Assembly (NCBI GenBank): GCA_965242865.1
Contig: CBDETK010000013.1
Span: 256,001-320,000, forward strand
From: Candidatus Latescibacterota bacterium
Lineage (GTDB): Bacteria; Latescibacterota; UBA2968; UBA8231
Length of the DNA: 64,000 nt
Direction: 5' to 3'
Shown: positions 47,168 through 50,982 of the stretch, piece by piece
Layout: the number at the start of each line of letters is the position of its first letter
Numbering within the stretch: position 1 is the stretch's first letter
Notes under the pieces: model-generated
The model's database searches: none
What the model saw: only the letters and a program-made list of their open reading frames with translations
What the model was told of the DNA's origin: nothing
Translations under genes and position numbers: made by a program

Positions 47168-49342
47168 ATGAGATTGAACAGGAAAATAACTGCACAATTA
47201 TTGAACAGGAAAATAACTGTACAATTCTGGAGGGCTAAAGGACTTAGCGTTCGTGCATCTAATTGTCTGGCAATGGCAAATATTACAGACGAACAAGAAC
47301 TAATCGAGAAAGTTACAACTCTTGATTACCTACTTGCTCTCAGAAATTGTGGCAAACAAACAGCCGAAGAGGTTTGGACATTCCTCACGCACTTAAAACC
47401 TATCTCCAACCACCATCAAAGAGTAGAAACTACATCGTCCAATTCGGGCGATGATCGTTCTACTGAAGCACAATCAGTTTTTGTTCCACTTTTGGACATA
47501 GAGGTATCCATACATATATGGGAAGTCCTCCAAAATACTCCAGTCGATAGTATCCGATGGAGCGTTCGGACACGAAACGTAATCGGCCGTCAGAAGTTAC
47601 AGGAACTAGCTGAGATTGCCGAACTTTCCCCTGGAGAGTGGCTCGATTTTAGAAATTTCGGAGATACCTCTTTGACAGAAATCCAAGGACGCATGGCAGA
47701 AATAATTGAGCAACTTAGGGCTAACCCCAGTGGTATTGAGCCGAGCGACGAGCATTCTGTCGAGACGCAATCTGTCTTTATACCCATTCTAAACACAGAA
47801 ATATCTGCCCACACATGGGAAGCAATTCAAAACATGTCTATTCATCAATTCAACTGGAGTGTTCGGACACAAAATGTTCTCCGTCGGCAGGGCTTCAAAA
47901 CGATTGCCGAGATTGCCGAATTTTCCCCTAGAGAGTGGCTCAATTTTAGAAATTTTGGACGCAAATCTCTGACTGAGATTCAGGAAACAGTTAATAAGAT
48001 CGTTGCGAATACTGACCTGACGTGCCTTGATTCGATGAATGAGCATTCTGCTGAGGAGCTATCTGAAAACTCTGGTGGTCGTCCCTTGTGTCCAAACGAT
48101 CCCGGCTGGATTCCCGCTTTCGCGGAAATGACGACGAGCGGCTCTACGGCTTGCCCAACACGCCCCAAGGTGGGTTTTCAGACAGACTCTGAAGTATCGC
48201 AGATTCAAACACTCGCCAATCTTGGCGACGTAGTTTTTCAATCCCTTCAAACTCGCCAACAGAAGATTATTGCGTCCTATTACGGTTACAAGGAAGTACC
48301 TAAAAAATTACATCAAATTGGTGAAATGCTCGGAGTTACCCGTGAGCGAGTCAGGCAGATTAAGGTAAGGGTCAACAAGAAAATCAATCAAGGCGCGGAC
48401 AACCATCTAATCAAAACCACAATCTTCTATCTATTGAGCCAGTCCATCTACGATGTTCTCGCGAAGGCTGGTGGCTGGTGTTCTGTCAAAGACCTCCGGG
48501 AAAGTATTCATCAGCGGCTGGGGTGGGAAGATAGCGATCAGTGGATTATCGCTTGGTTTGACGAAGCATTCGGCGAGGCGTGGGTATGCTTAGGGACAGA
48601 CGATTACAAAATTATTGATGGCACCTGTTGTCTTAGAGCAGAAGAACGCATTCAAGATGTTTTTACAAAATTTGTGGCGAGACTTCAACGTTATGGCTAT
48701 CGGCCTTTAGCATTGGAAGAATGCCAATACCTCATTCAAAAAAAAGACGAAACTGCTTTCGATCCAGATTATTTGCTTAATAAAATTGTAAGCCATCCCG
48801 CTTTGAAAGTTCATCAGTATAGAAAAACACTCATAGGGCTAAAGGAGTGGACCTGGTTCAGTCCTGAAAAACCAACGACTGCCGCAGGACTAGTCTCACT
48901 CATCGAATGGTTCCTCCGAATGACCAATGAACCTACCACGGCAAAAGCAATCGCCAATGGGATAGGAAGCGAACTCGGCAATTTTAGGTTGACGTCTTTT
49001 GATGTTGCCGACATCTGCGAAAAACAGCCTTATCTTTTTTTTGTTAATGACAATGGGACCTATGGCTTAAACCTTTGGGAGAGAGCCTCAAAATACCGGC
49101 AAGCCCTCACACGGTTACTGTCAGATGAACCGTTACCTATTGAGCGGATTGCCGAGCTATTGTCCCCCCAAGACCCAGAGGAGACTAGGCTTATTGTCGC
49201 AGCATTGAACTTTTATACAGATTCGTTTGTGGAAGCGGTGCCTTTTGAGTGGGCATTAAAGTTGCAGGTGGACAAAATTGAGGCGAAAACAGATTTTGAC
49301 TATACTAATCTCACTTTTGAAGACTTAATGCCTAAATTATGA
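47168..49342 (+). CDS. Protein with three RNAP alpha-CTD-like repeats, a sigma70 region-4 HTH and a C-terminal helical region
   Basis: LSVRASNCL...RNCGKQT, WSVRTRNVI...RNFGDTSLTEI, WSVRTQNVL...RNFGRKSLTEI; LHQIGEMLGVTRERVRQI. ATG 47168 coincides with the GC drop. Confidence 0.8.
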   Translation: MRLNRKITAQLLNRKITVQFWRAKGLSVRASNCLAMANITDEQELIEKVTTLDYLLALRNCGKQTAEEVWTFLTHLKPISNHHQRVETTSSNSGDDRSTEAQSVFVPLLDIEVSIHIWEVLQNTPVDSIRWSVRTRNVIGRQKLQELAEIAELSPGEWLDFRNFGDTSLTEIQGRMAEIIEQLRANPSGIEPSDEHSVETQSVFIPILNTEISAHTWEAIQNMSIHQFNWSVRTQNVLRRQGFKTIAEIAEFSPREWLNFRNFGRKSLTEIQETVNKIVANTDLTCLDSMNEHSAEELSENSGGRPLCPNDPGWIPAFAEMTTSGSTACPTRPKVGFQTDSEVSQIQTLANLGDVVFQSLQTRQQKIIASYYGYKEVPKKLHQIGEMLGVTRERVRQIKVRVNKKINQGADNHLIKTTIFYLLSQSIYDVLAKAGGWCSVKDLRESIHQRLGWEDSDQWIIAWFDEAFGEAWVCLGTDDYKIIDGTCCLRAEERIQDVFTKFVARLQRYGYRPLALEECQYLIQKKDETAFDPDYLLNKIVSHPALKVHQYRKTLIGLKEWTWFSPEKPTTAAGLVSLIEWFLRMTNEPTTAKAIANGIGSELGNFRLTSFDVADICEKQPYLFFVNDNGTYGLNLWERASKYRQALTRLLSDEPLPIERIAELLSPQDPEETRLIVAALNFYTDSFVEAVPFEWALKLQVDKIEAKTDFDYTNLTFEDLMPKL
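48055..48189. mobile_element. 135-bp MITE inserted in-frame in the alphaCTD/sigma4 gene
   Basis: TGA(48052-54) GGAGCTATCTGAAAAC ... GTTTTCAGACAGACTC TGA(48190-92); internal CTGGATTCCCGCTTTCGCGGAAATGAC. 135+3 = 138 bp = 46 codons. Confidence 0.75.
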
Positions 49343-50982
49343 GAGATTCGCACCGAATGATTTTGCCACAACATCAACAACCAGTAACCGTTCGACTTGC
49401 GCGGGAAGAAGATATTGAAGGCGCGAAACGAATTGCGGATCAACACCGATCTGAATTGGGGTTTGTCAACATCGCCATTTTGCGGGTAGCACAAAGCAAA
49501 GAATGGCTTCTTGTTGCGGCCGAATGGGAAAATCAGAGAAAGTGTGATGTAGTTGTTGGATTTGCAAATTTCCGGATCAAACGGGATAAAAACGCAACGC
49601 TATACGAAATTGCAGTAGCTGATTCACACAGACGTACAAGAGTCGGGACCCGTTTGCTGAGCGAATTAATTCGACGTGTTCACCTAGCTGGCGGGCAATA
49701 TGTTCGTCTCAAGTGCCCACAAGATCTAAATGCCAATAAATTTTACCAAAAATTCGGATTTCGGCATGGCGAAACAGAGCAACGCAAGAAGAGACAGCTC
49801 CAAGTGTGGTACTACCATATTCCCTTAATGCACGGCTCAGGCGCGGAAACATCCTTAGTTACTCCTTTTATTCGCATAGCTGATGAACAGGCTTTGCCGC
49901 AACCTTTCACACCGGAGAACGAACTTCACGCATCCGCACATTTTTACGCTTCCCTGACAGTCAAACCGGATGAAATGAGGACATTGCATCGCCTCTGGCA
50001 TACACATGCACACGACTTTGACTGGAAGTTCGGCAAACCGAATCCATTTCAACGGGTGCTCATCTCTCCTGTCGTTGCCAGCAGGTACATCTTCGATTTT
50101 GTCCGAGAACTGAAACGGACAGGTGAAACGGAAGTGGTCATGTTCGATTCTGGTGGCTATTTCGTCCAGAAAGGAGATATCTCTTATTACGATCTTCATC
50201 GGAAACTCTATGAATACTATCAGCAGGAGGATTGGGCGGATATATATGTTCTGCCAGATAATCCACCACTCAGTAGAGACTCGCTACGTTCTGCGGAAGC
50301 GAAGATAAAACAAACTGTTGAGGGCAGCCTGCGACTTTACGGCGACCTTTCTTACGAAGTTCAGCAGAAAGCGATGCCTGTCGTTCACGCAACGAGAAGT
50401 GAACATCTCGACTATTGCCTGAGACAATACGCTGATTTTAAGAATATCGGTTTCGGCTCATTTCCAACAAGCGGAACTTCAAATTCTATCAACCGATTGA
50501 ACATCAACGCGCTAATGATTCTCCGGCAACTGACTCGGATGCTGGATTCTGAGGGTGTAAAACTACATACCTTTGGTATTTCAACACCACCCGCGATTTA
50601 CCTACTATCACTGGCTGGTGTACATTCTTTTGATTCTAATGGTTGGATGCGGTCTGGTGGATATGGTAAGATATTCCTCCCATTTATGCGGGGCTATCTA
50701 GTCACTTTCAACTCTCGGAGGAATAGGAGTTTGAATGAAACAGAATTCAAATTGTGGAAGGAAAATATAAAGCATGATTGTCCGTTCTGCGGTTCTTTCG
50801 AGCAGCTTTCAAATAACCGATGGGATCGAATTATGCACAATCTGATAGTTATGTCAGAATTAGAAACACATCAGAGGACACCCCGAACAGATATGTTACG
50901 AGAGCTATCAGGAACGTACTATCGTATGTCACAAAGTCTGATAGGTGAAAACTTGTGGCCTGTTAATAATCACGACCTTTAA
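49339..50982 (+). CDS. GNAT acetyltransferase fused to a TGT/DpdA-like guanine transglycosylase
   Basis: GNAT: LYEIAV...RRTRVGTRLL...NANKFYQKFGF. TGT fold: MFDSGGY, PDNPP, MPVVH, IGFGS, LHTFGI, SFDSNGW, and Zn-site-like HDCPFC...HNL. Confidence 0.8.
   Translation: MRDSHRMILPQHQQPVTVRLAREEDIEGAKRIADQHRSELGFVNIAILRVAQSKEWLLVAAEWENQRKCDVVVGFANFRIKRDKNATLYEIAVADSHRRTRVGTRLLSELIRRVHLAGGQYVRLKCPQDLNANKFYQKFGFRHGETEQRKKRQLQVWYYHIPLMHGSGAETSLVTPFIRIADEQALPQPFTPENELHASAHFYASLTVKPDEMRTLHRLWHTHAHDFDWKFGKPNPFQRVLISPVVASRYIFDFVRELKRTGETEVVMFDSGGYFVQKGDISYYDLHRKLYEYYQQEDWADIYVLPDNPPLSRDSLRSAEAKIKQTVEGSLRLYGDLSYEVQQKAMPVVHATRSEHLDYCLRQYADFKNIGFGSFPTSGTSNSINRLNINALMILRQLTRMLDSEGVKLHTFGISTPPAIYLLSLAGVHSFDSNGWMRSGGYGKIFLPFMRGYLVTFNSRRNRSLNETEFKLWKENIKHDCPFCGSFEQLSNNRWDRIMHNLIVMSELETHQRTPRTDMLRELSGTYYRMSQSLIGENLWPVNNHDL

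Follow-up and report, generated by a model that had tools for sequence, protein, structure and literature searches.

A GNAT-transglycosylase fusion as the candidate DNA-marking enzyme of a BREX-Related Capture island in a Latescibacterota bacterium

BREX-Related Capture (BRC; BREX, bacteriophage exclusion) has been described computationally only, in Nucleic Acids Research in January 2026 (PMC12839542, cited throughout from its accessible portions). Those portions list as components PglZ, a DUF6079/BrxC-like ATPase, a STAND NTPase, DUF4007, HerA/FtsK, a GNAT acetyltransferase and a tRNA-guanine transglycosylase (TGT), report the system from 45 taxa, and state that the GNAT is occasionally fused with the TGT and that DpdB and DpdC are absent. 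They propose that GNAT and TGT mark host DNA with "acyl and 7-deazaguanine" derivatives, favor endogenous preQ0, and suggest the STAND NTPase as a DpdB-like helper. No other paper in the literature searched used BRC terms together with GNAT or TGT. Here we analyze a window of 64,000 nucleotides from a Candidatus Latescibacterota bacterium (assembly GCA_965242865.1, contig CBDETK010000013.1, positions 256,001 to 320,000, forward strand), in which a GNAT-TGT fusion, gene B, lies in an operon of genes A to G, followed by a small protein, C, and further downstream by a BrxC-like ATPase, E. We put at about one half the probability that B is the modification enzyme of a BRC anti-phage island, in which guanine exchange in DNA would be coupled to acylation. 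The island itself very probably belongs to the BRC kind. Both this type of system and the idea of DNA marking by GNAT and TGT are already in print, and what follows is not the discovery of a new system. What is new relative to print is the linkage of the GNAT to the TGT in three arrangements, the core of TGT, C and E, a viral GNAT and TGT pair, the affinity of the TGT to archaeosine enzymes, and the gaps in QueC among the hosts.

Other described proteins provide further points of comparison. Cap10 of type IV CBASS (cyclic-oligonucleotide-based anti-phage signaling system) is, according to the accessible text of 10.1101/2025.04.06.647259, a TGT-family protein remodeled to hold the deazaguanylated N-terminus of a CD-NTase. 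In phage DNA, fdPreQ1 and its predicted formyltransferase DpdN provide a precedent for an N-acylated dPreQ1 (10.1101/2023.04.13.536721, accessible text). DpdM and DpdN (products mdPreQ1 and fdPreQ1) resemble the chemistry considered here in placing an alkyl or acyl group on the aminomethyl nitrogen of preQ1 in DNA; they differ in having folds unrelated to GNAT-TGT, and "acetyl" occurs 0 times in the accessible text of that paper. No paper on acetyl-preQ1, under several spellings, was found in the literature searched.

The GNAT-TGT fusion and its affinities

The anatomy of gene B is as follows.

49339..50982, plus strand: gene B, GNAT-TGT fusion of 547 amino acids (aa), with an ATG start and no internal stop
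49375..49830, plus strand: GNAT domain, residues ~13-164, from Pfam GNAT families and Z scores of ~20 to Ard1/NatA/RimI
49921..50952, plus strand: TGT-fold barrel and zinc subdomain, residues ~195-538, from the model, fold search and hhalign
50143..50160, plus strand: FDSGGY motif, residues 269-274, with D270 on the DSGG aspartate of TGTs
50629..50637, plus strand: FDS motif, residues 431-433, with D432 on the nucleophile aspartate of TGTs
50773..50838, plus strand: zinc site H479-x-C481-x-x-C484...H500, on the C-x-C-x-x-C...H of bacterial TGT

The GNAT domain comes first and is joined to the TGT-fold barrel by a disordered linker (residues 167-194, of low confidence in the AlphaFold2 model). 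The model of the whole protein had a mean pLDDT (predicted local distance difference test) of 89 and a pTM (predicted template modeling score) of 0.88; the model of the TGT part alone had a pLDDT of 89.1. The GNAT part is a member of Pfam Acetyltransf_1 (PF00583), with 45.3 bits against a cut-off of 20.7 (E 1.3e-11, residues 58-141). The TGT part scores 20.3 bits against Pfam TGT, under the cut-off of 26.3 (E 3.2e-4), and gives a weak match to PADLOC "TGT" (E 9.8e-5). Its fold, its two active-site aspartates and its zinc subdomain are all those of the TGT superfamily, with the Pfam score below cut-off.

Among 67 aligned homologs, F269-D270-S271-G272-G273, D307, D432, H479, C481, C484 and H500 are invariant, and Y274, F431 and S433 are conserved in at least 90%. 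In hhalign alignments to the canonical TGTs of the source genome and of related genomes, D270, D307 and D432 pair with the aspartates of DSGG, DEC and MFD in bacterial TGT, and H479, C481, C484 and H500 with its C-x-C-x-x-C...H zinc ligands. The FDS motif aligns with LFDS of archaeosine TGT (arcTGT), SIDS of DpdA and MFDC of the bacterial enzymes. An earlier, sequence-only reading of this window had described a GNAT and a TGT barrel in one open reading frame (ORF), with both catalytic-type aspartate motifs kept and a variant HxCxxC...H zinc site. The Pfam score of the GNAT and the fold match of the TGT, together with the invariance of D270, D432 and all four zinc ligands, bear this description out. 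That reading had the anatomy of the gene right but overlooked that B is the first enzyme of a conserved operon that already carries the name BRC.

In the predicted structure, the TGT fold of the C-terminal part is unambiguous. The TGT-only model matched archaeosine TGT (1iq8_A) at Z 26.1, with 295 residues aligned, a root-mean-square deviation of 3.0 and 17% identity, followed by bacterial TGT (3unt, Z 22.9), QTRT2 (21.1), DpdA (7ui4, 21.0) and Cap10 (9ntn_B, 18.7); unrelated TIM barrels reached Z 15.2 at best. These values come from the VIA wide search, used in place of a Foldseek search against the PDB, whose list was filled with Zymomonas mobilis TGT entries and gave no ranking of subfamilies. 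A PDB profile search with the TGT part alone returned only arcTGT (E 0.019) and DpdA 7ui4 (E 0.07), both centered on the LH-FG...FDS stretch; with full-length B, the 60 matches listed were GNAT entries only. When family profiles were compared with hhalign, a set made up of one archaeal TgtA and six arcTGT-like proteins gave a probability of 99.5% over 271 columns (E 6.9e-23), and a set of seven canonical bacterial Tgt proteins gave 90.3% (E 1.5e-6). By this measure B does not cluster with the housekeeping tRNA enzymes, in agreement with the sequence-only reading. NCBIfam TgtA (TIGR00432) matched B at 20.1 bits (E 1.8e-4), far below the membership cut-off of 350 bits, and TIGR00430, the model of the housekeeping bacterial Tgt, gave no match. 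Three of the more distant matches from the profile search described below (P0253, P0260 and P0265) scored best on NCBIfam TgtA, with 42.7-114 bits, and only 18-35 bits on DpdA. The barrel of B is closest to archaeosine-TGT-like enzymes, and is neither a DpdA nor a housekeeping Tgt.

Archaeal TgtA, with its bacterial arcTGT-like orphans, is the best structural match of B, but differs from it in several respects. The TGT domain of B, at ~350 aa, covers only the catalytic part of 1iq8 (chain residues 14-354 of 577), and B therefore lacks the C-terminal tRNA-binding domains of the archaeal enzyme; its first zinc ligand is His rather than Cys, and it is fused or linked to a GNAT. DpdA shares with B the TGT fold (291 residues aligned to 7ui4), an aligned aspartate before the FDS/IDS motif, a defense-island setting and a presumed action on DNA. 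It differs in that B matches no DpdA model, lacks DpdB and DpdC, and has as partners the GNAT, C and the BrxC-like ATPase.

The kinship with arcTGT raises the question of whether B is directed at tRNA, either as a second tRNA-modifying TGT or as an infection-triggered effector, with the TGT recruiting tRNA and the GNAT acetylating the tRNA or its aminoacyl group. The closest fold is indeed that of a tRNA enzyme, a kinship also seen in the NCBIfam TgtA match, and GNAT toxins that acetylate aminoacyl-tRNA exist. We nevertheless consider this very unlikely. A separate canonical tgt is present in the source genome and in all 30 host genomes surveyed below, and B is without the tRNA-binding domains; it heads a row with C and the BrxC-like ATPase, which is not the placing of an effector, and is patchily distributed and found in an island of low GC (guanine plus cytosine) content, and its viral counterparts sit in a replication module.

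The GNAT domain (AlphaFold2 model, residues ~13-164) matched the acetyltransferases Ard1, NatA and RimI at Z 19.7-20.7, and its best NCBIfam model was rimI (E 3.2e-8). Since 50 structural entries fall within Z 16.5-20.7, the fold match is a poor guide to the substrate. Across 60 GNATs of this family, fused or separate, K30, D34, G41, F42, G103, L124-K125-C126-P127, N133, F135 and Y136 are at least 90% conserved. These residues are consistent with an active acyl-CoA transferase, with G103 and N133-x-F135-Y136 as putative parts of the acyl-CoA motif and catalytic Tyr region. The L-K-C-P sequence (residues 124-127, window 49708-49719) is an unusual motif for a GNAT core, and its cysteine is kept at a frequency of 0.97 in the 60 sequences.

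The resemblance to protein acetyltransferases is one basis for a protein-directed module, in which the TGT fold would bind or process a nucleobase-tagged protein, as Cap10 does, and the GNAT would acetylate a protein N-terminus; the BRC complex would then be regulated or primed, and DNA left unmarked. Cap10 is a likeness in that a TGT-fold protein was recruited into an anti-phage system, it matches B at Z 18.7, its hold on the CD-NTase N-terminus sets a precedent, and the top GNAT structures are all N-alpha-acetyltransferases, with rimI as the best NCBIfam model. We judge this reading quite unlikely. According to the accessible text of 10.1101/2025.04.06.647259, Cap10 has no zinc site, has a remodeled nucleic-acid surface and binds a protein N-terminus, whereas the zinc ligands of B are kept and invariant. 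The Z scores of B to arcTGT, bacterial TGT and DpdA are all higher than that to Cap10, and the GNAT scores, over 50 entries, discriminate poorly. The island has no matches to QueC, QueF, QueD or FolE. Genes for a Cap9/QueC-like protein or a CD-NTase are likewise absent from it, and none of its genes matched a nucleotidyltransferase family.

The operon, its conserved core and its mobile relatives

The seven genes of the island all run in one direction, and neighbors are spaced by -61 to +14 nt, negative values being overlaps. Besides B, they are:

47168..49342, plus strand: gene A, 724 aa, three RNA-polymerase alpha-CTD-like (C-terminal domain) repeats and a sigma-70 region-4 helix-turn-helix; ATG at 47168, start inferred
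50993..51805, plus strand: gene C, 270 aa, no recognized family, directly downstream of the TGT; GGAGG-type ribosome-binding site before the ATG at 50993
51745..52359, plus strand: gene D, 204 aa, P-loop NTPase; weak AAA/STAND matches, E ~0.01-0.06
52374..56459, plus strand: gene E, 1361 aa, BrxC-like ATPase with a long helical C-terminal part; AAA_16 E 1.3e-3
56423..57592, plus strand: gene F, 389 aa, short PglZ/alkaline-phosphatase-fold protein; PADLOC PglZ E 1.3e-5
57589..58806, plus strand: gene G, 405 aa, HerA/FtsK-type ATPase; Pfam DUF87 (HerA central) E 3.7e-19

The island has a GC content of 46-51%, compared with ~62% around it, and is flanked by ubiD (45116-46921, minus strand) and the aconitase gene (58845-61520, plus strand). 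Gene B was carried by 5 of 40 sampled relatives, the pattern expected of a mobile accessory island. The best explanation is that the island, now found between ubiD and the aconitase gene, was acquired horizontally.

Compared with the accessible description of BRC, the island shares HerA/FtsK (gene G), a short PglZ (gene F, with weak scores) and the GNAT and TGT, here fused; with C, D and E as putative counterparts of the others, a single operon would hold all seven kinds of component. By position, C stands where the paper puts a DUF4007/BrxA-like protein and D where it puts the STAND NTPase/BrxB homolog. The island differs in having the upstream sigma/alpha-CTD gene A, which lies outside the seven components named there, and in that C and E are not tied to DUF4007 or DUF6079 by Pfam hidden Markov models (HMMs).

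Relatives of B were collected in several ways. A word-index search gave 161 relatives, ~86 of them full-length fusions of 448-557 aa and the rest mainly stand-alone barrels of ~335 aa; a profile search of 1.84 billion representative sequences gave 609 proteins at E <= 1e-3, 113 of them at E <= 1e-30; and a scan in which each species was represented by a single genome confirmed 91 loci, 80 of which were kept. The 80 loci come from Latescibacterota, Gemmatimonadota, Poribacteria, Chloroflexota, Armatimonadota, Acidobacteriota, Planctomycetota and Bacillota, and from the methanogen Methanocaldococcus indicus. Counts of C and E were made on the 60 loci with at least 6 kb downstream, and those of D, F, G and the gene patterns on the 51 with at least 9 kb, which we call well covered. 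D to G were detected by BLAST at E 1e-4, a threshold at which divergent copies may be missed.

Of the 60 loci, 58 have C and 59 have E. F and/or G were present in 34 of the 51 well-covered loci and not found in the remaining 17. The patterns were CDEFG (28 loci), C-E-- (14), C-EFG (4), CDEF- (2), --E-- (2) and CD--- (1). D accompanies PglZ and HerA: it was detected in 30 of the 34 loci with F and/or G, as well as in one rearranged locus (L017), and the 16 loci with patterns C-E-- or --E-- gave no D. The GNAT was called at E < 1e-10 and took three arrangements in the 80 loci: 21 have it fused to the TGT, 14 have it as the gene immediately upstream of the TGT, and in another 21 it closes the operon at the 3' end; of the 24 loci in which it was not found, 16 have less than 9 kb downstream. 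Across these arrangements it is present in 43 of the 51 well-covered loci. From these counts, GNAT, TGT, C and E form a constant core, and D, PglZ and HerA a separable module. The accessible BRC text, by comparison, starts from a survey seeded on PglZ/HerA and describes HerA as universal and GNAT/TGT as a subset, whereas our TGT-seeded survey finds the core without PglZ or HerA in 17 of 51 loci.

The constancy of this core also bears on whether B could be an effector that excises bases, a possibility that the sequence-only reading had already raised. The TGT would in that case attack guanine or a modified base in invading DNA, leaving abasic sites or covalent adducts and no mark. TGT chemistry does proceed via a covalent enzyme-nucleic acid intermediate (title of PDB entry 1q2r). 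The island, however, already has candidate effectors in PglZ and HerA, the B-C-E core is kept in 16 of 51 well-covered loci where D, F and G were all not found, the viral pair sits among genes for the virus's own replication, and the constant GNAT would be left without a role. We consider base excision highly improbable.

Several loci show unusual arrangements. In five from Chloroflexota (L019, L020, L022, L058 and L068), the GNAT and TGT are followed by two successive C-E pairs, with E proteins of ~1160 and ~1320 aa, and no D, PglZ or HerA was detected. Three loci from Blastocatellia, Planctomycetota and Binatia (L044, L045 and L047) have a fused GNAT-TGT, then an unrecognized ORF (220-309 aa) and then an E-like ATPase (1239-1604 aa); a ~660-aa ORF comes next in two of the three, and the C position is too divergent for detection. 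A relative whose fusion is 81% identical to B carries an extra, divergent GNAT (34%) and TGT (37%), side by side (G059:C1:3682904-3684337).

Among 50,697 phage records, a single match was found, in the Thermocrinis Great Boiling Spring virus (BK013347.1, L103:3953-5130). This virus encodes a 135-aa GNAT (HMM E 2.8e-38) and a 257-aa TGT (E 2e-82) that overlap by 4 nt and adjoin genes for a sliding clamp, a helicase, a PD-(D/E)XK nuclease and PolA, a replication module. None of the partners C to G lies beside the pair. The paper on this virus does not discuss it: "acetyltransferase" occurs 0 times and "transglycosylase" refers to the lysin only. In IMG/VR, one 73.7-kb contig of unconfirmed viral nature has a TGT adjacent to a GNAT, again with no C to G partners; 9 of 10 neighboring ORFs have no PHROG match, and one falls in a family of unknown function. 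Two further viral matches in IMG/VR were weak (E 2e-5 and 3e-5). The pair in the Thermocrinis virus points to a use of this chemistry in counter-defense as well. There were three plasmid matches. Conjugative plasmid pOSC7112.01 of Oscillatoria nigro-viridis PCC 7112 carries a 458-aa GNAT-TGT, C and E only, with genes on the opposite strand next to them.

Precursor supply and a proposed mechanism

Apart from B, the source genome encodes a canonical tgt (548 bits, G000:C13:3097721) and an arcTGT-like paralog (80 bits), as well as folE, queD, two queC genes and queF, all of them far outside the window. The two QueC genes are full length (G000:C13:2567252 and G000:C13:3004348; 198 and 199 bits), and one lies in a 444-aa frame ~6 kb from queF. 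The sequence-only reading had noted the absence of folE, queC, queD, queE, dpdB and dpdC from the window and had called for a check of the genome for a separate tgt and que genes; tgt, folE, queC, queD and queF proved to be present elsewhere, and DpdC (DUF328) was not found anywhere in the genome. Neither DpdB nor DpdD was found in the source genome, weak negatives, since the DpdB search matched in none of 14 control genomes and the DpdD search in no control genome. A DpdA homolog of 572 aa is encoded on the minus strand at ~783.9-785.6 kb of contig G000:C13 of the same genome (L003:1066-2781); its 160-aa N-terminal extension resembles PADLOC PDC-M57A, and similar ORFs of ~580 aa occur in two related genomes. 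Elsewhere, arcTGT-like paralogs of 397-401 aa (TgtA 82-88 bits) occur in carriers from Latescibacterota (L099, L102) and Poribacteria (L100), and the same set of genomes has a 652-aa protein with TgtA-like and ArcS-like parts.

Because the source genome has tgt, folE, queD, queC and queF, supply of a precursor from the host queuosine pathway, as the sequence-only reading had supposed, is feasible there. The supposition did not carry over to all carriers. Our survey took in 30 genomes of carriers, each identified by way of its locus. A canonical TGT occurs in every one of the 30 (29 of bacterial type; archaeal type in G021), and QueA in 28, the two without it being the archaeon and Chloroflexus islandicus. 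Full-length QueC (183-265 bits) was found in 17 of 30 and QueF in 16; the raw QueC tally of 27 of 30 includes partial matches. Of the 13 hosts without full-length QueC, 12 keep QueA and 12 are without QueF, and they include one complete genome and two chromosome-level assemblies. Since TGT and QueA need a 7-deazaguanine base, we infer that these hosts import one, presumably preQ1. This result has two sides. On the one hand, every bacterial host would have a deazaguanine base at its disposal; on the other, endogenous preQ0 cannot be the substrate in all of them, 13 of 30 having no full-length QueC. No link worth reporting was seen between the presence of the GNAT and that of QueF across hosts.

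The gaps in QueC might point instead to an incoming base other than a 7-deazaguanine, such as an N-acylated purine, which the GNAT would make or activate and the TGT install, so that the mark would be independent of the queuosine pathway. The wording "acyl and 7-deazaguanine" marks in the accessible text of PMC12839542 leaves room for such a base. The lack of the searched que genes in the island, the hosts without QueC and the linkage of the GNAT to the TGT in three arrangements and a virus fit it as well. This reading is in our view distinctly unlikely. We know of no incoming base for TGT-family enzymes other than guanine, 7-deazaguanine or a close analog; B retains the aspartates of the pocket by which the guanine face is read, and TGT in 30 of 30 and QueA in 28 of 30 hosts mean that a 7-deazaguanine base is present in those cells.

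The data show the domains of B, its conserved catalytic residues, the conservation of the operon and the linkage of GNAT to TGT. In the mechanism that we propose on this basis for B as a DNA-modifying enzyme, DNA as the substrate, the base that is used, its acetylation and the logic of restriction are all inferred. The TGT-fold domain, with its archaeosine-type barrel, both aspartates and an intact zinc site, would remove guanine from the host cell's DNA and put in a guanine-like base, most likely a 7-deazaguanine obtained from the queuosine pathway or by salvage. The exchange would work with the constant partners C, presumed to bind DNA, and E, the BrxC-like ATPase. E appears a better candidate than D for a DpdB-like helper, because D travels with PglZ and HerA and E is universal. 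The GNAT would use acyl-CoA to acylate the exchanged base or its precursor, the simplest chemistry being N-acetylation of the aminomethyl group of preQ1 or dPreQ1, and the optional module of D, PglZ and HerA would act on DNA without the mark. The fdPreQ1 precedent (10.1101/2023.04.13.536721, accessible text) makes N-acetyl-dPreQ1 the simplest product. A more specific version, plausible but as a whole unlikely, has the pair producing 7-(acetamidomethyl)-7-deazaguanine (N-acetyl-dPreQ1) in DNA, which would be a natural base not reported in the literature searched. It would serve as the self-mark of a BREX-like system, the virus of a hyperthermophile would protect its own genome with it, and E and C, not DpdB, would drive and target the insertion.

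A number of observations weigh against B as a DNA-modifying enzyme of this kind. The nearest structures to its GNAT are protein N-alpha-acetyltransferases, not base- or nucleic-acid-modifying enzymes, and the GNAT was not detected in 8 of the 51 well-covered loci. Neither NCBIfam NF041059 nor the PADLOC DpdA models matched B at E <= 0.1, and the source genome has, in its DpdA homolog, a protein that scores 346 bits on NF041059 (cut-off 200) and 330 bits on PADLOC DpdA. The island contains no DpdB, DpdC or searched que genes (QueC, QueF, QueD, FolE). In the 13 of 30 hosts that have no QueC match, or only a partial one of at most 31 bits to the N-terminal motif, the mark would be independent of endogenous preQ0, and a deazaguanine mark would need a scavenged base, which would be unusual for a defense mark. 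Protein C, the presumed DNA-binding partner, is not tied to DUF4007-like or DNA-binding families by Pfam or PDB profiles, and 0 of its 21 homologs match DUF4007 in Pfam. The viral TGT ends before the zinc subdomain, and no experimental test of the BRC GNAT/TGT was found in the literature searched.

B is a real candidate for an enzyme that marks DNA in a new way. If it does mark DNA, this would be a third self/non-self chemistry for BREX-type immunity, after methylation and phosphorothioation, and the product could be a new DNA base. GNAT-TGT, C and E can be named as the minimal module, and tractable sources are the conjugative plasmid of the cultured cyanobacterium O. nigro-viridis PCC 7112 and a Haloplanus plasmid.

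Other genes of the island

For gene C, a PDB profile search gave nothing below E 0.27, and an atlas search gave unnamed clusters and one DpdG-like cluster at 0.87, beneath the trust level. A predicted complex of the TGT domain with protein C scored 0.00, which is evidence neither way. In gene E, Walker A (G71-x-G73-K74-T75) and D203-E204 are invariant in 20 homologs; 4 of the 20 match BrxC_BrxD, weakly (best E 6e-4), and none matched DUF6079 in a Pfam scan. The best STAND-type match of gene D was nSTAND3, also weak (E 0.062).

For gene F, 5 of 18 homologs match Pfam PglZ and 6 of 18 Phosphodiest, all with weak scores. A PDB profile search returned response-regulator chains at E 2e-3 (8ted, 8p6f and others, which we take to be PorX-type PglZ-domain regulators) and the BREX PglZ 9zn5_B at E 0.059. 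Residues D146, T177, D260, H264, D304-H305 and H369, of metal-site type, are invariant. Gene G matches PADLOC HerA (E 1.8e-23), mad8 (E 3.6e-22) and DndH (E 1.4e-7). The mad8 match suggested a MADS label for the island, which was dropped since no other mad gene model matched.

The stop of gene A overlaps the start of gene B by 4 nt. Gene A matches Pfam RNA_pol_A_CTD in three stretches (E 1.5e-35) and Sigma70_r4 (E 1.5e-10), and resembles the middle part of PglW (PADLOC, E 1.2e-9) and the C-terminal part of MzaA (NCBIfam, E 1.7e-6). It is likely a DNA-binding or sensor component. At 29 of the 80 loci, one of the three ORFs called before the TGT gene is A-like; three of these A-like ORFs are just 79-127 aa long. 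In close relatives gene A is among the least conserved genes of the island, with 52-91% identity compared with 89-98% for HerA. A tRNA-Glu(UUC) gene lies at window 43591-43665 on the minus strand, ~3.5 kb upstream of the island, with ubiD between them.

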